The position numbers and the translations under genes were made by a program. Below the pieces are notes generated by a model, which saw only the letters and a program-made list of their open reading frames with translations, did not search any database and had not been told where the DNA came from. From Candidatus Bathyarchaeota archaeon (GTDB lineage Archaea; Thermoproteota; Bathyarchaeia; 40CM-2-53-6; RBG-13-38-9), in contig CAWECG010000001.1 in the NCBI GenBank assembly GCA_963807605.1, forward strand, positions 160,001 to 224,000: a stretch of DNA of 64,000 nucleotides, read 5' to 3'. Positions 3,972 through 58,810 of the stretch are shown piece after piece; within the stretch, counting starts at the first letter, position 1; the number at the start of each line of letters is the position of its first letter.

Positions 3972-5234
3972 TTGAACATATTCGAAAAGATCCTCGCTAG
4001 GGCATCGGAAAGAAAGGAAGTAACCCCAGGGGAGATAGTCGAAGCAAACATCGATATGGCGATGATTCACGACCTAACCGGTCCTCTAACAGTGGACTCC
4101 TTCCGTAAGATTGGCGCCGAGAAAGTATGGGACCCAAAGAAGATAGTGGTAATTTTTGACCACTTGGTTCCTCCAAGCACCGTCAGGGCTGCTACCCTCC
4201 AAAAAGGAGTCAGAGAATTCGTGAGAGAACAAGGAATCAGAAGCTTCTACGATGTCGGCCAAGGAGGGGTCTGCCACCAAGTCTTTCATGAGAAGGGATA
4301 TGCAAGACCCGGTGAACTGGTCGTCGGTGCCGACTCACACACATGCACCTACGGAGCACTAGGAGCCTTAGCTACTGGAATAGGATCAACCGAGATGGCA
4401 GCAGTCTTTACAACAGGAAGAATGTGGTTCAAAGTGCCTAAAGTCATGAAGATCCATACTAGCGGAAAATTCGAGAAAAATGTTACCTCAAAGGATCTCA
4501 TACTAAGAATAATCGGAGATATTGGAGAGGGTGGAGCAATATACAAGGGAATGGAATTCACAGGTCCAACATTCACAAACATGAGCATTGATGGAAGATT
4601 AACAGTATGTAATATGGTGGTCGAGGCAGGAGCAAAAGCAGGCATAGTCCCGCCAGACAACAAAACCCTCACTTACGTCAGAGCAAGAACAAAGAAACCA
4701 TTCAAACCATTAAAAAGTGATAAAGACGAAGCTTATGAAGAGCAGCTAGAATACGATGTTTCAAAACTAGCTGCTCAAGTAGCCTGCCCCTCATCAGTTG
4801 ATAACGTCAAACCTGCATCTGAACTGTCTAACGTAAAAGTAGACCAAGTATTCATAGGATCATGCACAAACGGACGAATCGAAGATCTCAGGTTCGCTGC
4901 ATCAATCCTGAAGGGTAAAAACCTTCACCGCGATGTCCGAATGATCGTAAGCCCCTCATCCCAACAAGTATACAGCCAATGCCTCAAAGAGGGGCTGTTC
5001 CAAATATTCATGGAAGCTGGCGCAATAGTGACCAATGCAACGTGCGGGCCCTGTCTGGGTGGACATATGGGATTACTAGCTGCAGGAGAGGTCTGTATCA
5101 GTACCTCAAATCGTAATTTCATAGGCAGAATGGGAAGCCCTCAATCCTACGTTTACCTGGCTAATCCAGCTACAGCAGCAGCATCTGGAATAGCTGGATA
5201 CATAATCGATCCAAATGAATTGAGGAGGAGATGA
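3972..5234 (+). CDS. leuC: 3-isopropylmalate dehydratase/homoaconitase large subunit
   Basis: GADSHTCTYG, FIGSCTNGR, CGPCLG, STSNRNFIGRMG. Confidence 0.93.
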   Translation: MNIFEKILARASERKEVTPGEIVEANIDMAMIHDLTGPLTVDSFRKIGAEKVWDPKKIVVIFDHLVPPSTVRAATLQKGVREFVREQGIRSFYDVGQGGVCHQVFHEKGYARPGELVVGADSHTCTYGALGALATGIGSTEMAAVFTTGRMWFKVPKVMKIHTSGKFEKNVTSKDLILRIIGDIGEGGAIYKGMEFTGPTFTNMSIDGRLTVCNMVVEAGAKAGIVPPDNKTLTYVRARTKKPFKPLKSDKDEAYEEQLEYDVSKLAAQVACPSSVDNVKPASELSNVKVDQVFIGSCTNGRIEDLRFAASILKGKNLHRDVRMIVSPSSQQVYSQCLKEGLFQIFMEAGAIVTNATCGPCLGGHMGLLAAGEVCISTSNRNFIGRMGSPQSYVYLANPATAAASGIAGYIIDPNELRRR

Positions 5235-5734
5235 AGTTGATCATTACTGCAAAAGCTGTAAAGTTTGGAAACAATATAAACACAGACGTAATCCTACCGG
5301 GTAAATATCTTGAATTGATCGATCCTAACGAACTAGGAAAACATGCATTGGAAGGACTTGATCCAACCTTCCCGCAGAGAGCAAAAGAAGGTGTAATAAT
5401 CGTAGGTGGCAAGAACTTCGGTTGCGGATCAAGCAGAGAACAAGCCCCAATAGCTCTAAAGGCGGCAGGAGTTAAATGTGTCCTCGCTGAGTCATTCGCA
5501 AGGATCTTCTATAGGAACGCGATAAACATAGGGCTGCCGGCCCTAGAATGCTCAGGCATCTCAGAAAAAACCAATGAAAGTGACTCGATCTCTATAAACT
5601 TGAAAGACGGAATTGTGGAAAACCACACTAAAGGAATCACCTTAAAGACCTCCCCTATGCCCGAGTTTATCATGAATCTATTAGAAGAAGGAGGCCTCAT
5701 CCCTCATACAAGAGGCCTGATCGGTAAAAAATGA
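5231..5734 (+). CDS. leuD: 3-isopropylmalate dehydratase small subunit
   Basis: NINTDVILP, NFGCGSSREQA, SFARIFYRN. Confidence 0.93.
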   Translation: MKLIITAKAVKFGNNINTDVILPGKYLELIDPNELGKHALEGLDPTFPQRAKEGVIIVGGKNFGCGSSREQAPIALKAAGVKCVLAESFARIFYRNAINIGLPALECSGISEKTNESDSISINLKDGIVENHTKGITLKTSPMPEFIMNLLEEGGLIPHTRGLIGKK

Positions 5735-5844
5735 GAGAACATAACATCGCACTTATACCTGGCGATGGTATTGGCCCAGAACAGACTGAAGCTGCACTGA
5801 AGGTTTTAGAAGCGCGCGCTAAGAGTATAAGAGAAAAATGCTAA
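5731..5844 (+). pseudogene. 5' remnant of the native leuB
   Basis: ATGA overlap with leuD; MREHNIALIPGDGIGPEQTEAALKVLEA then breaks at GCGCGCGCT (5812-5820). Confidence 0.85.
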
Positions 5845-5860
5845 GGAGAAAAGAAGAACG

Positions 5861-6922
5861 ATGAGAAAGAAATATAATGTCGCAGTAATTGGCGGTGACG
5901 GTACAGGTCCGGAAGTGGTAGCAGAAGGATTAAAAGTCCTGAAAGCAGCTTCGAATGAATTTGGTTTTTCGTATGATACGACAATGTTTGATTTCGGTGG
6001 TGAGCGGTACCTGAAGACCGGAAAAACAATTACCGATGAAGAACTGGAAGGATTGAAAAAGTTTGATGCGATCTATCTTGGTGCAATCGGACATCCGGAT
6101 GTAAAACCGGGAATTCTGGAGCAAGGAATTCTTCTCAAGATACGATTTGCGCTCGATCAGTATATTAATTTACGTCCGGTGAAACTCTATAATGAAGCCT
6201 TTTGTCCCTTAAAGGATAAGAAACCGGAAGATGTTGATTTCGTCGTTGTGCGTGAAAATTCCGAAGGCCTCTACAAAGGACTCGGCAGTTTTGAAAATAA
6301 AGGGACAAAAAATGAAGTAGCAATTCAAATATCGCACAATACACGGAAAGGCGTTGAACGCTGTATTCGCTATGCGTTTGAATACTGCAAGAAACGCAAC
6401 AGCAAGAAAAAGAAACTCACGCTCTGCGGAAAAACGAATGTCCTGACATATGCATGGGATCTCTGGCAGCGAACATTTGATGAAGTGAAAAAAGAATATC
6501 CAGACATTCAAACCGAGTATGTGAATGTTGATGCAACAACCATGTGGTTTGTAAAAAATCCAGAATGGTTTGATGTGATTGTTACTGATAATTTATTCGG
6601 TGATATTATCACTGATCTTGGAGCGATGGTGCAAGGCGGTATGGGTATCGCCGCGGGTGGCAATATTAATCCGGAAGGCGTTTCTATGTTTGAACCGATC
6701 GGCGGATCTGCACCAAAGTATACCGGGAAACATGTTATTAATCCGCTTGCAGGGATTTGCGCCCTTGGGATGCTTCTGGAAAATATCGGTGAAGAAAAAG
6801 CCGGCAAAGGCGTTGAGAATACAGTGATTCGTCTTGTTCAGACTAAGATAAGAAGCCTTTCAGCAGGAAAGATGGGGTATACCACCGAAGAAGTCGGCGA
6901 TATGGTTGCAGGCGGGTTATAA
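5861..6922 (+). CDS. leuB: 3-isopropylmalate dehydrogenase, compositionally foreign (bacterial-like)
   Basis: [42 protein letters not shown]; 10 of 12 Arg codons are CGN versus 5 of 5 AGR in adjacent leuD. Confidence 0.92.
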
Positions 6923-6942
6923 GAAAAACACGCGCGCGCTGT

Positions 6943-7101
6943 GAAAAGGAAGACGACACGAAGTGGACGAATGCAGCTAACGCAATTGAGGAAGCCTTCG
7001 TCAACAATCTAGAACAAGGCGTCTACACACCTGATCTTGGAGGGAAGAGTAGAACAGCGGAAGTTGGAAAAGCAATAGCACAACAAATAATCGAGGGATA
7101 A
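6943..7101 (+). pseudogene. 3' remnant of the native leuB
   Basis: EKEDDTKWTNAANAIEEAFVNNLEQGVYTPDLGGKSRTAEVGKAIAQQIIEG*; TPDLGG C-terminal motif; stop lies 2 nt before leuA. Confidence 0.85.
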
Positions 7102-7103
7102 GA

Positions 7104-8630
7104 ATGCAGCAGGAGAAGGATAGAGTCTGGATATTTGATACTACTCTAAGGGACGGCGAACAGACTCCCGGGGTATCCCTCACACCAGAGGAGAAGCTAG
7201 AGATAGCTATGAAGCTGGACGAGCTTGGCGTCGACACTATAGAGGCGGGTTTCCCAAGAGTATCACGAGGGGAAGTTGAAGCTACTAAGCTCATTTTGAA
7301 ACAAGGTCTGAAGGCCAAAGTCTGCGGACTCGCACGGACTGACCAGAAGGACATCGATGCCGCTCTCGAATGTGGAGTCCCCTACATACACGTATTCATA
7401 GCAACCTCAGAGATCCACATGAAACACAAACTGCAAATGAATAAACAACAGGTTCTAGAGGCTGCAACAAAATGGGTAGGTTACGCGAAGGATCACGGTG
7501 TGATTGTAGAATTCTCACCTGAAGACGCGACTAGAACCGAGCCCGACTTCCTCAAACAGGTCCTTAAGGTCGCTGAAGAGGCTGGAGCCGACATAATAAA
7601 CGTTCCAGACACCGTCAGCGCCGCAACACCTGAGAGGATGTTCGAGATCATAAAAGAATGCGTATCCACGGTAGCCATACCGATCAGCGTTCACTGCCAC
7701 AATGATTTCGGCTTGGCTGTAGCAAACTCACTCGCCGGAATCAGAGCAGGAGCATCGCAAGCCCATGTAACAATAAATGGGCTGGGCGAAAGAGCAGGTA
7801 ACGCCTCTCTTGAAGAGTTTGTAATGTCCCTCCATCTGCTAGAGAATAAGAAGACAAGCATCAACACCAAGCTCATCTACGAGACCTCAAGACTGGTATC
7901 CGGGCTTACAGGCGTACTTATACAGCCGAACAAGGCTATAGTTGGAGAGAATGCCTTCGGTCATGAATCCGGGATCCATACACATGGAATGCTGAAAAGT
8001 CCCTTAACATATGAACCGATCACCCCTGAGCTTGTTGGAAGAAAGAGATGGTTCCAAGCCGGAAAACATGCCGGAGGACACGGCCTTGCCGCCAAGCTTG
8101 AGGAGGACGGCCTTCATCCAACTGAAGAACAGATGAAAGAGATAACCCGTCGAGTCAAGGATATCGGCGACAGGGGAAAGATGGTGGCCGATGCAGACCT
8201 ATTCGCAATCGCCAAAGCAGTTATCGGCGGAGTTTCGGAAGAGAAGAAGATCGTTGAGTTAGAGAATCTCACAGTTGTAACAGGAACAGGCGTGGTCCCA
8301 ACATCATCGGTCAAGCTACTTATTGACGGAAAAGAGTACATATCCTCGGAGACCGGCGTTGGGCCGGTCGACGCTGCCATCAAGGCTATCCACAAGATAG
8401 TTGGTCCGCTGGCGGACGTGAGATTGAAGGAGTATCGACTGGAAGCCACAACTGGTGGGTCCGACGCTTTAGCCGAAGTCCTCATAAAGATAGAGGATAG
8501 CGCAGGCAACATTGTGTCGGCCAGAGCAGCCAGAACAGATGTGGTGACTGCAAGCGTAGAAGCAGTGATAGAAGGAATCAACAGGACACTAATCAAGAGC
8601 CGCATCAAGAGTTCCGAAGACCGGCGCTGA
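7104..8630 (+). CDS. leuA: 2-isopropylmalate synthase (citramalate synthase not excluded)
   Basis: [24 protein letters not shown] and the C-terminal regulatory domain GVGPVDA. Confidence 0.88.
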
Positions 8631-8674: not shown

Positions 8675-9805
8675 GTGGCCAAGCACAGGATAGCACTTCT
8701 TCCGGGCGATGGTATCGGCAAAGACGTAATCGATGCAGCCAAGATAGTTCTTGACGCGACAAGACTTGACGCCGAGTATTTTCTCGGTGAGATTGGATGG
8801 GAATTCTGGAAGAACGAGGGCGACCCTTTACCCCAGAGAACTCTAAGCCTACTTAGAAGGACCGACGCCTGCTTGATGGGAGCAATAACCTCCAAACCTA
8901 AGGATGAAGCTCAACTTGAGCTAGACCCCAAGCTGAAGAACAAAGCTTACGATTACTACAGCCCAATAGTCAGGCTCCGTCAGGAGTTTAATCTCCACAC
9001 GAACATAAGACCCTGCAAGAGCTACAAAGGCAACCCACTCAACTTCAGAGAAGGAATAGACATAGTAGTATTCAGAGAGAATACCGAAGGCCTCTACAGC
9101 GGAGTTGAGTTCCACCCCCTGCCGTTGCCACTGATGCAGTGGCTAATTAAGAATCATCCGAAGATGAAGAGATTCGAATCTACGCCTCTTGATGAGATAG
9201 CAATCTCATTGAGGATAATGACTAGGAAAGCCTGCGATACGATCCTGACCAGTGCATTCGAGTACGCCAAGAAGAAAGACTACAAGACCGTCACCGTAGT
9301 CGAGAAGCCGAACGTACTGAGAGAGACAGGCGCGCTGATGCTCAGAGAAGCGCGAAGAATTGCCACGAACTACCCTTCAATTCAACTCCTAGAAGGAAAT
9401 ATAGACGCGATCTGTATGTGGCTGATAAAGAACCCCTTAGACTACTCGATAATTGTGGCTGAGAACCTTTTCGGAGACATCATCTCCGACCTCTGCGCGC
9501 AACTTGTGGGAGGCTTAGGCTTCGCGCCGAGCGCGAACGTCGGTGATAGCTATGCAATCTTTGAACCAACACATGGCTCGGCTCCGAAGTATGCGGGACA
9601 GTACAAAGTCAACCCTCTGGCAACAATCCTCTCTGCAGCTATGATGCTTGAATACCTTAGAGAAAATGCCTTGGCAGCAAGAGTTGAAAACGCAGTCGCA
9701 GCTGTCATCGCAGAAGGAAGAGTAAGAACCTACGATATGGGCGGAAGCAGCACCACCTTGGATATGGCACATGCCATATCTGACAAGCTGAGTTCAAGCT
9801 CGTAA
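8675..9805 (+). CDS. Isocitrate/isopropylmalate/homoisocitrate dehydrogenase family protein
   Basis: GDGIGKDV, FRENTEG, ENLFGDIISD, FEPTHGSAPKYAG. Confidence 0.9.
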   Translation: MAKHRIALLPGDGIGKDVIDAAKIVLDATRLDAEYFLGEIGWEFWKNEGDPLPQRTLSLLRRTDACLMGAITSKPKDEAQLELDPKLKNKAYDYYSPIVRLRQEFNLHTNIRPCKSYKGNPLNFREGIDIVVFRENTEGLYSGVEFHPLPLPLMQWLIKNHPKMKRFESTPLDEIAISLRIMTRKACDTILTSAFEYAKKKDYKTVTVVEKPNVLRETGALMLREARRIATNYPSIQLLEGNIDAICMWLIKNPLDYSIIVAENLFGDIISDLCAQLVGGLGFAPSANVGDSYAIFEPTHGSAPKYAGQYKVNPLATILSAAMMLEYLRENALAARVENAVAAVIAEGRVRTYDMGGSSTTLDMAHAISDKLSSSS

Positions 9806-49803: not shown

Positions 49804-50076
49804 GATTCATCTTCGCTTTCGGTTGTGCCTGCTGTCTTTATTAGCGCGCGCCCAACCTTCACATCACAATGTGTTGAACCGAACATATTTACTCTTTGAA
49901 GTGTCTGCTATCACTTGTGTTCCGCAGGTGGCTCCATTAGCTGTCGAGCTTACAACGAATATGCAGATAGTCGCGAAGATTTTATCAGTTTCAGTAATAG
50001 GAAAAACAATCCAAACCTATACATTGATGCTCGTAAGATGGACTTGTGAGGATTTCTGTCAAGAAGTGAGAGATAT

Positions 50077-50265
50077 ATGCCACAGATATGCATATTTCAG
50101 ATAGATACGGGAATAAAGGGATCATCTGGAATCTCGATTTGTCCTATTTCGGAGACTGTCGCAGACATCTGGACTGGCAAGCTGAACGTCGATCGGCTGC
50201 TCAAATGTTGCCAATTTTGTCCCTATAGGGTAAACGCTATTCGATTCAAAGAAAGTCCGAGCTAA
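50077..50265 (+). CDS. Small Cys-rich hypothetical protein; reads on + although the track says minus
   Basis: atgccacag at 50077; CCQFC motif; SD-like gaagtgag upstream. Confidence 0.45.
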   Translation: MPQICIFQIDTGIKGSSGISICPISETVADIWTGKLNVDRLLKCCQFCPYRVNAIRFKESPS

Positions 50266-50623
50266 GCCATGTTTCAGAGGGAACGTCTTCAAAGAGTTCT
50301 CCCCATTTTTTTTGACGTGTGATTATAACGTCTCCGAGCTGGTGGGCATGAAAGATAATTCGAAGAAACGCGCGCGCTTCCTGAACACCTAATCCACTAG
50401 CGCCCATGCTCGTAACTGTACTGTCTGTCTTCACAGTAGAATCCCACATTGGGATGGCAGGCCATATGCATTATCCTACGGGCGAACGCTCCGCAGACTT
50501 TTTGCGTGCACAACAGAAAGTCAAAAGCCTCGAGGTAACGTCTCACTGAAAAGACAAACTATAAAAGTTTACATGATCTTTTGGAGCTAGCCTTTAGCAA
50601 ATTTAGGACTGGAGTAAATAGAG

Positions 50624-52841
50624 ATGCCGCATTACAAGTCAACTGCAGAGATAATGAAGATAATACAACACAAGGATCAGATCCGAAAGATCTAGGCAAC
50701 ATTTGCCTAGTCCGGAATATATTGGTATTATCGCCCATGTTGATCATGGCAAGACTACCATGTCTGATTCCTTGTTAGCCTCCTCCGGTTTACTTTCTCC
50801 ATCCGTAGCCGGAAGTGCCTTGGCTCTTGACTATATGGAGGAGGAACAGAAAAGACAGATGACTATCAAAGCTGCTAACGTCAGTCTCCTGCATGAAAAG
50901 GACGGAGTTTCCTACGTCATTAACCTCATCGATACACCGGGACACGTCGACTTCTCAGGTAGAGTAACAAGATCTCTGAGGGCGATCGACGGCGCCGTTG
51001 TGGTTGTTGACGCTGTTGAAGAGGTCATGGTCCAAACTGAGACAGTGACGCGGCAGGCCCTTGAAGAGAGGGTTAGACCTGTCCTCTACGTCAACAAGAT
51101 CGACCGGCTCATCAAGGAGCTCAAACTAAGCCCGGAACAGATCGAGGAAAGAATTACCAGAATAATCAGGGATTTCAATCATTTAATTGAGATGTATGCT
51201 GAACCTGAGTTCAAGAACAATTGGAAGATTAGTTTTGCGACCAACACGGTGGCTTTGGGCTCAGCCAAGGATCGTTGGGGTTTCAACTCTGAGATTGCTA
51301 AAAAGAAAGGAATCAAGTTCTCTGACATTGTCGTTGCCTATGAGCAGAATAAGGTTGAGGAGTTGAGGGAGAAGGCTCCGCTTAACGAAGCCATACTGAA
51401 CATGGCTGTCGAGTCGATGGCCCCACCAGATGTTGCCCAAAAATACAGGATCCCAAAGATCTGGAAGGGAGATATCAACAGCGATATCGGCCAGGCGATG
51501 ATGAATTGTGATGACAATGGCCCGGCTGTGATGGCCGTCTCAAACATTGTCGTCGATCCTCAAGCTGGGGTCGTTGCAACGGGTCGTCTCTTCTCCGGAA
51601 CTCTGCGTGAAGGGGATACGGTCCATTTGGTTGGGGCCAAGTCCGACTCTAGGATTCAACAGGTCTGTATATACATGGGTCTTTACAGAGAGATAGTCGG
51701 CGAATTAACGGCTGGAAATATCCCAGCGCTATTAGGGCTTGATGCTGCGAGGGCTGGTGAGACGATCTCCTCGGCAAAAGATGTGGCGCCTTTTGAAGCT
51801 GTCAAGTATGTTACAGAGCCTGTTGTAACGCTGGCTGTCGAGCCGAAGTACAGTAGAGATCTACCAAAGCTTGTTGATACTTTGAGAAAGCTCTCGATCG
51901 AGGATCCTAACTTGGTCACAACGATCAATGAGGAAACTGGGGAGTACCTCATTGCCGGTATGGGCACGCTACACCTTGAGATAGCGACGACCTTGATTCA
52001 AAAGACAGGTCTCCAGATCACTATGTCGAAACCCATCGTCATCTACAGAGAGAGTATCAGGAAGCCTGCAGGCCCAGCCGAGGGTAAGTCGCCTAACAAA
52101 CACAGCCGGATCTACATCGAGATTGAGCCTATGAGTGAAGAAATTGTGAACATGATTAAGACAGGCGAGATCGGCGAGTATATGGACAAATCGGCAATGG
52201 CAAAGATCCTGAGAGAACACGGCTGGGCCCCTGATGAGGCAAAGGGTGTCTGGAGCGTAGATGAGGGTTGCAACATACTCACCGAGGTTACCAAAGGAGC
52301 CCAATTCCTACAAGACGTCAAGGATATGGTCGTCGCTGGTTACAGGTGGGGGATAAAGGAAGGACCATTGGCATATGAGCAGATTAGAGGAGTGAAGGCC
52401 AAGATTGTCGATATCCAACTTCACGAGGATCCGGTTCACAGAGGACCTGCCCAGATAATGCCCATGACAAGGAGAGCCTTCTTTGTCGCCTTCCTCTCCG
52501 CAGAGCCGACACTTCTTGAGCCGATTCAGAGGATGACTGCGAAGGTCGCTCCAGACCTTCTAGGATCAGTGACCAGCGTAATTAGTCAGAAAAGAGGAAA
52601 GGTTGTCTCAGTGGATCAGAAGGAAAACATAGTATACATAGTAGGCGAGATGCCCACCGCTGAGACTTTTGATCTCTCTGAGTCCCTTCGAAGCGCAACC
52701 GCGGGGAGGGCTTTCTGGGGTCTAGAGTTCGCCAGATGGTCTGCTGTTCCAGCGTCATTAATCGGTCAAGTCATTCAAGACATTAGGAAGAGGAAGGGGT
52801 TGCCGCCTGAGCCCCATAAGGCCCAAGACTTCATGGAGTAG
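50624..52841 (+). CDS. fusA: Elongation factor EF-2, join(50624..50687,50719..52841), 728 aa after splicing
   Basis: MPHYKSTAEIMKIIQHKDQIR|NIGIIAHVDHGKTT, DTPGH, NKID, diphthamide loop HEDPVHRGPAQ. Confidence 0.93.
50688..50718 (+). other. 31-nt bulge-helix-bulge (BHB) mRNA intron in EF-2
   Basis: Central helix TCCG 50682-85/CGGA 50713-16; 3-nt bulges AAA 50686-88 and ATA 50717-19; intron stem ctaggcaa/ttgcctag. Confidence 0.88.
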
Positions 52842-56932: not shown

Positions 56933-57130
56933 TTATGGCTCTATTAAAGCATTTGCGAGAATTACGTTCTAACTGGGTATTATCGATTAGGGCTAGCTCT
57001 AGAAGCAGGTTTACGCGCGCGCGCTTGGCGTGTTCTTAAGTTATGTCGGTGCAGAAACTTTAAGCTCTATCTTGCTAAGAGACACGATAGGCATCTACAA
57101 CGTGCTCTTCCCTTTAAAGAGAAGTCAGCG

Positions 57131-58810
57131 ATGTTTGACTTAGCGAAAGATAATCCGATATTTTATCATGTGCTGGTTAGTGTTGTAGGTGTCGCTGTGG
57201 GCATCCTGACTTGTGCTTTCTATCTGGTATATCTGACCTTATGGTCAGAGATCACTAAAATCATAGAGTACTATAGGCCCTTCTTTTTTGTTTCTGCCTT
57301 TCTAGCCTTGGGTTTGTCTTACTTACTAGTCAGACTTTTCGCAGAAACAAAGATCACAGGGAGTGGAACTCATACTGTCCTAGAGGTTTTCCACCTTAGA
57401 AATGGCGATGTGAGTTTTCGCGACGCATTGATCAAGCCATTGGCGTCCATGTTTACCCTAGGATTCGGAGGAAGCGCTGGACCAGAGGGTCCCAGCTTGC
57501 TTCTCGGTGGGGGCGTAGCCTCGGGAATCTCAAAAAAGTTCAAAGTCAAAACAAGTTTCATGCGAAGCATATTTATCTCTGGTGCTGCTGCTGGTCTGTC
57601 CGCGACGTTTAGAACTCCCCTGACCGGAATACTTTTCGCGTTGGAAATCCCTTATAAACGAGGATTTGAAAGGGAGACATTTATCGATGCTTCCATCGCC
57701 TCAATTGTGTCTTATCTTGTCGCAGTGACAATTCTGGGTAGTGAGAGGATTTTCAAGATTGTAGAGAATGTTCAACTATCTTTAGACAATATTCTTTTGT
57801 CTCTACTCTTGGGGCTGCTATGCGGCGTCTATGCCCTATTTTTCGTCAAGACTTTCAATCTATTCGGAAGATTTGGATCGGAGATTAGAAAGAAAGCTGG
57901 AAGTTACGGAATGATCGCTTTGGGTAGCATCATGTTGGGGGCAGCAGGATATTTCTCTCTTTTCAGCATTGGTGTAGGCCTGAATTTTGTCGACGCTCTC
58001 GTCTATGGGGAAGCCATGACATTGACCTTTTTAGTCATTCTGATTCTAGTAAGGACTTTTGCAACCTGTGTAACCTTGAATTTCGGTGGTGGTGGGGGGC
58101 TCTTTTTCCCAACAATAGTTATTGGTGCAGGCATTGGTTACCTTTTCTCCACTATTTCAGGGACACCCTCGCAGGAGCTCTTTATTGCGATAGCTATAGC
58201 TGCTTTACTGGCTGGAACGCACAAGATGCTTCTTACGCCCGTCGCTTTCATAGTTGAAACATTGGGGGGCGGTTATGCCATACCTGCCCTGCTTGCTAGC
58301 AGTGTAAGTTACTTGGTGTCGGGAAAGTCTTCGTTCTATCCCCTTCAACTTGATACAAAACTGAAGTATGAAGAGCTTGCCCTTCAAAGGTTCTACGTCG
58401 ACGCGAAGAAATCGATTCCAGAACGCTTGCGTACCACTATGGCAAAGGACTTTATGACAAAGAATGTCTTAGCTCTAAACTTGGGAATGAACGTTAAAGA
58501 TGCCTTAGGGAAGTTCAGTACGACACACTTCAGAGTCTTACCCGTTATAGATCAAGAATATGACGTTGTTGGATATGTGACTCTAGAAGATCTCGGACAC
58601 ATAAGAAAGATGCATTATGAGAAAGATATTTCAGAAATCTTGACTCATAAGCCTTTAACCGTCTATGAAGAGACTAGTCTGGAGAAAGTTGCCGATTCTA
58701 TGATTGAGCGTGACGAAGACCACGTCTTCGTGACGGATAATAAGGGGAAACTCCTAGGAGTAATTGCAAGCATTGACGTGGTAAGAAAAATATTGGAGCT
58801 TTCCGCATGA
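57131..58810 (+). CDS. ClC chloride channel/transporter with CBS pair
   Basis: GSGT, GGSAGPEGP, GGLFFP, C-terminal CBS domains. Confidence 0.93.
   Translation: MFDLAKDNPIFYHVLVSVVGVAVGILTCAFYLVYLTLWSEITKIIEYYRPFFFVSAFLALGLSYLLVRLFAETKITGSGTHTVLEVFHLRNGDVSFRDALIKPLASMFTLGFGGSAGPEGPSLLLGGGVASGISKKFKVKTSFMRSIFISGAAAGLSATFRTPLTGILFALEIPYKRGFERETFIDASIASIVSYLVAVTILGSERIFKIVENVQLSLDNILLSLLLGLLCGVYALFFVKTFNLFGRFGSEIRKKAGSYGMIALGSIMLGAAGYFSLFSIGVGLNFVDALVYGEAMTLTFLVILILVRTFATCVTLNFGGGGGLFFPTIVIGAGIGYLFSTISGTPSQELFIAIAIAALLAGTHKMLLTPVAFIVETLGGGYAIPALLASSVSYLVSGKSSFYPLQLDTKLKYEELALQRFYVDAKKSIPERLRTTMAKDFMTKNVLALNLGMNVKDALGKFSTTHFRVLPVIDQEYDVVGYVTLEDLGHIRKMHYEKDISEILTHKPLTVYEETSLEKVADSMIERDEDHVFVTDNKGKLLGVIASIDVVRKILELSA

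Follow-up and report, generated by a model that had tools for sequence, protein, structure and literature searches.

Replacement of single operon genes by foreign homologues has been known from phylogenies for two decades; how the foreign gene comes to land at the position of its predecessor has stayed open. Such in-situ xenologous displacement in conserved operons is reportedly what Omelchenko, Makarova, Wolf, Rogozin and Koonin described in 2003 as 'mosaic operons', said to have been inferred from trees and to be clean, without remnants. Here we describe a leuB locus of an uncultured Bathyarchaeia archaeon (genome G000; 2.65 Mb, 5 contigs), located in a stretch of 64,000 nt that we analysed as a whole and call the window. 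The operon has the order leuC-leuD-[leuB]-leuA, and a complete bacterial-type leuB is nested in the remnants of the native leuB. Similar to the mosaic operons, one operon gene has been replaced in place by a foreign gene of the same function, and its neighbours are native. In contrast to them, as they are reported, the locus keeps both ends of the displaced gene and its allele crosses species. In-situ xenologous displacement is already known as a kind; what is new, as far as we could find, is the two-stub intermediate, the spread across species and genera, the probable recurrence within one family and the GC-palindrome joints. We think it likely that the locus is such a displacement preserved at an early stage, with the intruder still inside its predecessor, and that the new allele then spread between species.

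Homology-facilitated and double illegitimate recombination occur during natural transformation of Acinetobacter, Streptococcus and Pseudomonas stutzeri, with joints that show 3-10 bp of microhomology (PMC3240628). The leuB locus resembles these events in that about 1 kb of foreign DNA has come in, a resident segment of similar size has been deleted and the joints lack long homology. The short right stub of G000 also fits the type in which a one-sided homologous anchor is combined with an illegitimate join. It differs in that one 8-9-nt GC palindrome, not present in the recipient sequence, stands at both joints, and in that the host is an archaeon. In Saccharolobus islandicus, the replicative primase PriSL(X) repairs double-strand breaks by microhomology-mediated end joining through terminal transfer, strand annealing and extension, with small insertions and deletions as the outcome (PMC12019639). 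By analogy, such an activity could write a self-complementary patch at DNA ends before they are joined; the resemblance is one of mechanism only, and a fixed-sequence patch is reported neither for PriSL(X) nor for the recombination in transformable bacteria, the two nearest mechanistic precedents.

The protein encoded by the insert scores 505.2 bits against NF002898 (cut-off 393), with residues 2-350 placed on model positions 2-342 of 347. This full-length match above the cut-off predicts a 3-isopropylmalate dehydrogenase (LeuB) of the NF002898/PRK03437 type. Its codons differ from those of the surrounding genes: ten arginine codons are CGN and two AGR, whereas the neighbours use mostly AGR; T-ending codons reach 0.33 against 0.12-0.19; and the GC content of third codon positions is 0.38 against 0.43-0.60. 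The best 120 database matches of the protein share 80-89% identity with it, and every source name given among them is Omnitrophota or Omnitrophica. Among species-representative genomes, the closest sequences come from metagenome-assembled genomes (MAGs) labelled Bacteroidota and Ignavibacteriales (88-89% protein and about 77% DNA identity), followed by dozens of Omnitrophota. The 90% protein cluster that holds the insert has 208 members, and the nearest named relative is a protein of a 'Bacteroidota bacterium' MAG on a 725-kb contig (91.5-92.9% identity). The three archaeal copies (see below) were placed in a tree of 105 sequences, with native archaeal LeuB as the root. There they form one tight group (support of 100 in the Shimodaira-Hasegawa-like approximate likelihood-ratio test) deep in an Omnitrophota-dominated clade, with enclosing branches at 98-99. 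A bacterial origin also extends to the DNA in front of the gene. By blastn, the 29 nt 5' of the insert's ATG, with homology from 5832 and AAGGAG included, align with the intergenic leader of an Ignavibacteriales homologue (L019), whose upstream gene ends 175 nt away. Because the aligned bacterial DNA is intergenic, this stretch would be a leader of the donor and not the tail of a donor gene.

On both sides of the insert, the native gene can still be recognized. The first 28 codons of the N-terminal stub (MREHNIALIPGDGIGPEQTEAALKVLEA) match positions 1-32 of isopropylmalate/tartrate dehydrogenase models in hmmscan and align in tblastn, at 75% identity, with residues 1-28 of an intact native LeuB from a relative; the alignment with native genes stops at ...TTAGAA(GC). 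The C-terminal stub is an open frame of 52 codons plus a stop (6943-7101) that matches model positions of about 310-350 and residues 297-341 of the same native LeuB at 64% identity. Native LeuB belongs to another subfamily than the insert, TIGR02088 (archaeal isopropylmalate/isohomocitrate dehydrogenases; 421 bits, cut-off 409.8), and the displaced and incoming genes share a functional family (TIGR02088 versus the NF002898 LeuB equivalog). Best matches are bacterial for the insert and archaeal for the stubs, and LeuA and LeuD, encoded by the native neighbours of the insert, are 80-86% identical to those of family members. A genome-wide profile search of G000 found no gene besides the insert that reaches the LeuB or TIGR02088 cut-off; the insert is therefore likely to be the working LeuB enzyme of this archaeon. 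Since the stubs flank the intruder, insertion into the resident homologue is indicated, and not exchange through the neighbours or a tandem intermediate. With a foreign gene at a conserved position, of the same family as a resident that has been lost, and with the ancestral state present in relatives, the locus classes as in-situ xenologous displacement.

These results agree with most of what a preliminary description of the window had put forward. It had seen native leuB as a 28-codon N-terminal stub coupled to leuD and a 52-codon C-terminal stub abutting leuA, which the models and the native alignment bear out at the same positions. It had also proposed a complete foreign leuB in an insert of about 1.1 kb, with differing codon usage (10 of 12 arginine codons CGN, many codons ending in T) and the same sequence at both junctions; profile, codon counts and letters (GCGCGCGCT at 5812-5820 and 6932-6940) agree. 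Its expectation that separate searches would return bacterial matches for the insert and archaeal ones for the stubs was borne out as well. Its suggestion that some 40 nt before the ATG may be the end of the donor's upstream gene fell with the alignment to the intergenic, AAGGAG-bearing leader of the nearest bacterial homologue.

We compared the locus across the genomes of 16 species of the family, with MAGs and contigs as the basis of all comparisons. Three of the 16 carry the insert described here: G000, G001 (another species of the same genus) and G008 (a species of another genus), together called the trio below. In a sliding comparison of the trio, leuC, leuD and leuA are 60-83% identical and the insert 95-100%, with sharp steps at the joints. 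The insert copies are 97-99% identical in DNA, with a synonymous divergence (dS) of 0.019-0.046, whereas the flanking genes are 70-80% identical and saturated at synonymous sites. Where two copies encode the same amino acid, the third base is shared in 97-99% of codons in the insert, against 46% in leuD (G000 versus G001). These comparisons show, at the level of sequence, that the insert allele is far younger than the divergence of the species that share it. Because three species hold an allele so much younger than their split, at least some of them, possibly G000 too, would have received it by recombination from a related archaeon and not directly from a bacterium.

The stubs suggest how the allele moved. 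G000 and G008 share the entire N-terminal stub with about 5% differences, and G001 joins their common tract only some 35 nt before the left joint. On the other side, G001 and G008 share the first 124 nt or so of the C-terminal stub at 90% identity and then drop to 70%, and the distal part of this stub in G008 most resembles the native gene of G012, which belongs to the same genus and has an intact native leuB. The C-terminal stub of G000 is 128 nt shorter than those of G001 and G008, where the remnant begins at residue 248. Their stubs are uninterrupted frames of 95 codons, which fits a recent event. Tract ends that differ from pair to pair point to homologous exchange with crossovers in the stubs and not to vertical descent or independent insertions. 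Taken together, spread between species by recombination in the stubs after a single insertion seems the most likely history. At least two between-species transfers would be needed, and an identity of 90-95% in the stub parts held in common points to more than one round of exchange. An older, longer tract may have been followed by ongoing exchange within the insert, made possible by its near-perfect homology across species. The left joint is one of only four AGCGCGCGCT sites in the whole genome of G008, which suggests that the joint was made in a lineage rich in this motif and came into G008 with the allele.

Based on these observations, we propose the following course. In one member of the family, probably of a lineage rich in the (GC)4 motif, a bacterial piece of about 1.1 kb with a complete leuB and its own ribosome-binding leader would have entered the resident leuB at two breaks. 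The segment between them, codons 29-247 (about 0.66 kb), would have been lost, and the joining would have proceeded by end joining, not by homology, with an A(GC)4T patch foreign to the native gene at each joint. The gain of 1.12 kb against the loss of about 0.66 kb represents an insertion coupled to a resident deletion of similar size. The insertion would then have been tolerated or favoured, with the incoming gene supplying the destroyed function under operon control; this would account for the position of the intruder, because only an insertion that itself supplies the lost function can destroy a gene without harm. The N-terminal stub would have been kept as an open leader frame with its stop at the new start codon or shortly behind it, so that translation could pass from leuD to the new gene. 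Sequence comparison then suggests that the allele moved among species already at synonymous saturation, with pair-specific end points in the stubs. Finally, an additional 128 nt of the C-terminal stub are missing in G000, exactly from the right GC patch onward, either through a later deletion or through an illegitimate right-hand join of a one-sided homologous entry. The ends of the old gene would serve as homology arms, by which the allele could jump between strongly diverged species within a small fraction of their divergence time.

An unlikely explanation, although the best placed of those that compete with displacement and later spread, is that the cassette is a mobile unit whose (GC)4 ends form an 8-bp inverted and direct repeat and which an enzyme able to recognize or write the motif placed independently into the leuB of each species. 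The motif does stand at both ends of the cassette and at joints elsewhere, and in G000 the native sequence resumes directly at the motif, at residue 297 instead of 248. Independent placement does not agree with a left joint that is identical to the base in all copies, nor with similarity tracts that run different lengths into the native stubs, which is the signature of homologous exchange. Furthermore, the insert is not flanked by a target-site duplication; host codons 29-247 are deleted instead. Among the open reading frames (ORFs) of the window, none between 3000 and 11000 encodes a transposase or integrase, in keeping with the absence noted at the outset and confirmed within about 3 kb, and the genome of G000 holds no second copy of the cassette. 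Its borders consist of an 8-10-nt palindrome alone, without an attC-type structured site. By these features, the cassette does not class as a transposon, insertion sequence (IS) or integron cassette.

Comparison across the family suggests that the native enzyme has been displaced repeatedly. An intact native leuB of 342 amino acids lies between leuD and leuA in five of the 16 genomes (G002, G005, G006, G011 and G012; genera g2, g5, g6 and one g8 species). Genera g4 and g7 have a different bacterial-type leuB at the same operon position, 68-71% identical to the insert, and in G004 it is accompanied by decayed native remnants (AALIPENRIDPEQ... upstream, LGITPSALVGKY and ...AKRILEN downstream). 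In genus g3 (L005, L007, L008, L010), native leuB has been cut to 14 codons (MKKHNITVIPGDGI) that are coupled to leuD and stand directly before leuA. A third bacterial-type leuB, 66-67% identical to the insert, is located elsewhere in this genus: in G013 it follows leuA on the same contig at a distance of about 3 kb, and in G003 and G015 it lies on contigs other than that of leuA. TAGCGCGCGCTA stands 14 nt before the start of this gene in G003, and degenerate versions of the motif (TAGCGCACACTA, TAGCGTACGCTA) follow its stop in G013. The three bacterial-type kinds branch at three places among bacteria in the 105-sequence tree. Constraining the trio and g4/g7 to a single clade lowers the log-likelihood by 43.6 units, but the approximately unbiased (AU) test does not reject this arrangement (p = 0.104). 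Displacement thus probably recurred, up to three times in the family, a reading that the trees favour without proving. Up to three bacterial replacements raise the question of whether the native enzyme is flawed or the bacterial ones are better.

The same data bear on a single ancient insertion in a common ancestor, inherited vertically by the trio and g4/g7, with the identity of the inserts maintained by constraint. We regard this as very improbable. The bacterial-type leuB that g4 and g7 hold between leuD and leuA, the decayed native remnants of G004 and the AU result would all be compatible with it. On the other hand, constraint cannot produce 97-99% identity at synonymous sites between saturated flanks, and intact native genes occur in four other genera, that of G008 included. 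The trio is also much nearer to bacterial sequences (path 0.19) than to g4/g7, the native remnants of G004 reach further inward on both sides than those of the trio and have different joints, and the constrained tree is worse by the difference given above.

We have also verified that the arrangement is not an assembly artefact. G001 and G008 carry the insert behind the same left joint (...GTTTTAGAAGCGCGCGCTAAGAG...), and an exact search of public metagenome contigs with the GTTTTAGAAGCGCGCGCTAAGAG 23-mer returned two further records from other samples (L108, L109), one of which matches G008 at 99.3% identity and the other G001 at 99.2%. The left joint is hence present in five independent assemblies from three species, and the right joint in all three that reach that side (G000, G001 and G008). 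Two soil-metagenome runs of another study (X1/X2) yielded contigs that cover 5500-6168, 5699-6473, 6454-7072 and 6464-7400. These contigs are 97-98% identical to G000 in the flanks and in the insert alike, and they bridge both joints as they stand in G000, together with the shortened C-terminal stub that is private to it; their right GC run is one dinucleotide (2 nt) longer than that of G000. The foreign composition of the insert, joints that are low-complexity GC runs and homopolymer errors of the kind typical of long-read assemblies (A5/A6 in G000) might suggest a chimera of assembly or binning, with a piece of a bacterial contig misjoined into an archaeal one, but five independent assemblies of three species share the left joint with species-specific flanks, contigs from two runs of another study cross both G000 joints together with the private 128-nt deletion, and copies 1-3% apart are not one collapsed sequence, so that we give this explanation practically no weight. 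The preliminary description had left the choice between a chimeric assembly and a recent xenologous displacement in which illegitimate recombination left the operon position unchanged. The former is contradicted by the other species, the metagenome contigs and the contigs bridging the joints; the latter is supported, except that the event is not private to G000 and its allele occurs in three species. The comparison with sister genomes that it had called for returned either an intact native gene or the same insert at the locus.

Several observations weigh against displacement followed by spread, or limit how far it can be taken. The bacterial DNA closest to the insert is only about 77% identical, which falls short of pinpointing the donor or the first archaeal host. 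The proximal C-terminal stub common to G001 and G008 is 90% identical and not 99%, so one transfer is insufficient and either several rounds or continuing exchange in the insert must be assumed. The data would fit either direction of transfer among the three species. Evidence from RNA consists of two 151-nt contigs of one metatranscriptome that fall on the insert with 1 and 4 differences, too thin for a claim of expression or an assignment to species. Translational coupling through the stub is likewise something that we infer, as the stub frame of G000 as assembled stops 17 nt before the insert ATG owing to a run of five A residues (A5) at 5834-5838. This run is A6 in G001, in G008 and in the same-species contigs of both soil runs, and A5 is probably a homopolymer error of the long-read assembly. 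With A6, the frame of G000 would reach a TGA that overlaps the ATG of the new leuB; in G001 and G008 the stub frame ends 22 nt downstream of the new start. As a separate observation, the insert protein of G000 has 11 private amino-acid changes, four of which are Phe/Tyr swaps (positions 45, 114, 171 and 197), and the ratio of nonsynonymous to synonymous divergence in the insert is 0.85 between G000 and G001 and 0.23 between G001 and G008.

Short palindromes in great excess are known from other prokaryotes. HIP1 (GCGATCGC) of cyanobacteria is an over-represented short palindrome that is common inside genes and whose copy number depends on the lineage. The REP/BIME elements of bacteria are extragenic palindromes of 20-40 nt near gene ends, with a longer consensus and a dedicated transposase. 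The (GC)4 motif of the leuB joints is likewise short, palindromic, strongly over-represented and lineage-dependent in copy number. Unlike HIP1, 91% of its runs lie outside long ORFs; unlike REP, only A(GC)4T is conserved. The genome of G000 contains 298 occurrences of GCGCGCGC in 269 distinct runs of 8-15 nt, whereas 14-25 are expected, an excess of about 20-fold. The run is preceded by A in 79% of cases and followed by T in 81%, with no consensus around the G000 runs beyond TA..TA. The motif is intergenic, with 9% of runs in ORFs of at least 120 amino acids, compared with 76% of random positions. No longer repeat element is attached to it, as 223 of the 269 sites have unique flanks and the other 46 a similar flank elsewhere. 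AGCGCGCGCT occurs 106 times in G000, against 5 for the reversed control, 119 times in G001 and 16-63 times in eight other members of the family; G005, G006, G008, G011, G012 and G014 have 0-5 copies, and genomes outside the family 0-3. Searches of the literature did not turn up the motif in Bathyarchaeia.

The joint motif was not found at either joint position in the five intact native leuB genes. The native sequence at the left joint is GA(G/A)GCTG(T/C)(T/C)... and that at the right joint GT(C/A)GC(A/T/C)CC(C/A/G)TCAGC(C/T)AA(T/C), with GTCGCACCCTCAGCC in place of the motif. When the recipient side alone is compared with the patch, the two have no more than GC in common at the left joint, and at the right joint no more than a loose CGC.C.CTC. 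Two sources of the motif could be ruled out. It was not brought by the donor, as 80 bacterial loci contain 18 (GC)4 runs in 619 kb and none at the borders of leuB. Restriction and religation at pre-existing GCGCGC sites is ruled out for the recipient side, since the motif is missing from both joint positions in all five native leuB genes. A repeated gene counts against such religation as well: one truncated copy of it ends in AGCGCGCGCT at a place where four intact copies show ordinary sequence. Another two isolated runs border on IS or repeat debris, and the remaining three runs of the window all sit at structural differences. Over 20 kb compared with G008, the motif occurs in two of two structurally differing gaps and in none of five collinear gaps, although these numbers are small. 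As judged from sequence, the leuB joints are two copies of a genome-wide, family-specific junction motif and not a private microhomology. According to these tests, the motif marks joints, and it is new with respect to the sequence that was broken.

A tentative reading, which we hold to be less likely than not, is that the joints are patches newly written by an undescribed route of end joining or insertion. This route would be active in this family of Bathyarchaeia and capable of capturing bacterial DNA and exchanging it for a resident gene in a single step. If so, 'cut, tail with a self-complementary GC linker, and ligate' would give in-situ displacement a concrete mechanism, and the cassette would be a dated, two-sided example with known before-states in the five intact orthologues. 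For the process that writes or uses the GC motif, whichever it is, the locus ranks among the cleanest test cases. The coordinates of the features are collected in Table 1.

Table 1. Features of the leuB locus and further motif runs, in window coordinates
Feature	Coordinates	Strand	Remarks
leuC, large subunit of isopropylmalate isomerase, native	3972..5234	+	420-aa ORF; 70-83% DNA identity to same-genus relative
leuD, native	5231..5734	+	stop overlaps ATG of leuB stub (ATGA)
N-terminal remnant of native archaeal-type leuB (codons 1-27/28)	5731..5811	+	open frame, coupled to leuD; hmmscan, tblastn
Left joint, GCGCGCGC+T, in context A-GCGCGCGC-T-A	5812..5820		same in G000, G001, G008, L108 and L109
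Donor-derived 5' leader of insert	5821..5860	+	AAGGAG at 5843-5848; A-run 5834-5838
Complete bacterial-type leuB, predicted 3-isopropylmalate dehydrogenase, 353 aa	5861..6922	+	profile score, homologues, tree, codon usage
Short 3' tail of insert past stop codon	6923..6930	+	no difference among the three species
Right joint, C-GCGCGCGC-T	6931..6940		length varies among sister strains (one GC unit)
C-terminal remnant of native leuB (residues ~297-342, stop 7099-7101)	6941..7101	+	ends 2 nt before leuA
leuA, 2-isopropylmalate synthase, native	7104..8630	+	508-aa ORF; 80-86% identity in most family members
376-aa dehydrogenase paralogue, same superfamily	8675..9805	+	conserved; below every equivalog cut-off
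Two (GC)4 runs	49844..50378 (49844 and 50370)		bracket spot of missing ATP-dependent DNA ligase gene
(GC)5 run	57015..57024		~70 nt from synteny break with G002, G003 and G008

Further observations concern the surroundings of motif runs in the window and beyond. A gene for an ATP-dependent DNA ligase (about 540 amino acids, KxDG motif) that is present in G002 and G008 is absent from window positions 49804-50700, where G000 has 526 bp of unique filler bracketed by TAGCGCGCGCCC and AACGCGCGCGCTT. At the syntenic spot of G001 (L124/L119, G001:C336:7900-10800), the ligase is split into three frames of 214, 217 and 103 amino acids, which represents either a decaying gene or assembly errors. The only ligase-like genes of G000, at C4:390446-392156 and, partial, at C1:589627-590331, are 31% and 28% identical to the family gene. 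The loss of the ligase may be a second xenologous displacement. Near the (GC)5 run, collinearity with G002, G003 and G008, the three of five relatives searched that match here, ends at about 56948, and homology resumes at about 59548 on other contigs of theirs. A gene for a ClC-type channel with CBS domains (57131-58810) has no DNA match in the five relatives searched. Elsewhere in G000, (GC)4 runs concentrate in accessory, IS-rich regions (C1:340-600 kb, C3:0-280 kb, C4:0-40 and 640-730 kb). These islands, among them L115 (G000:C1:346001-366000), hold a 1.14-kb IS in at least five identical copies, as well as several short elements in multiple copies that relatives also have; only small parts of the 20-kb L115 sample match any genome of the family.

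Other dehydrogenases of the same superfamily occur in G000. The paralogue behind leuA (Table 1) was found in all relatives examined and is not the displaced gene. A fourth member of 363 amino acids (L113, G000:C1:341196-344692) is 41% identical to native LeuB, below all cut-offs, and sits between a 378-aa ORF that matches no NCBIfam family and a transposase of the IS5/IS1182 family.

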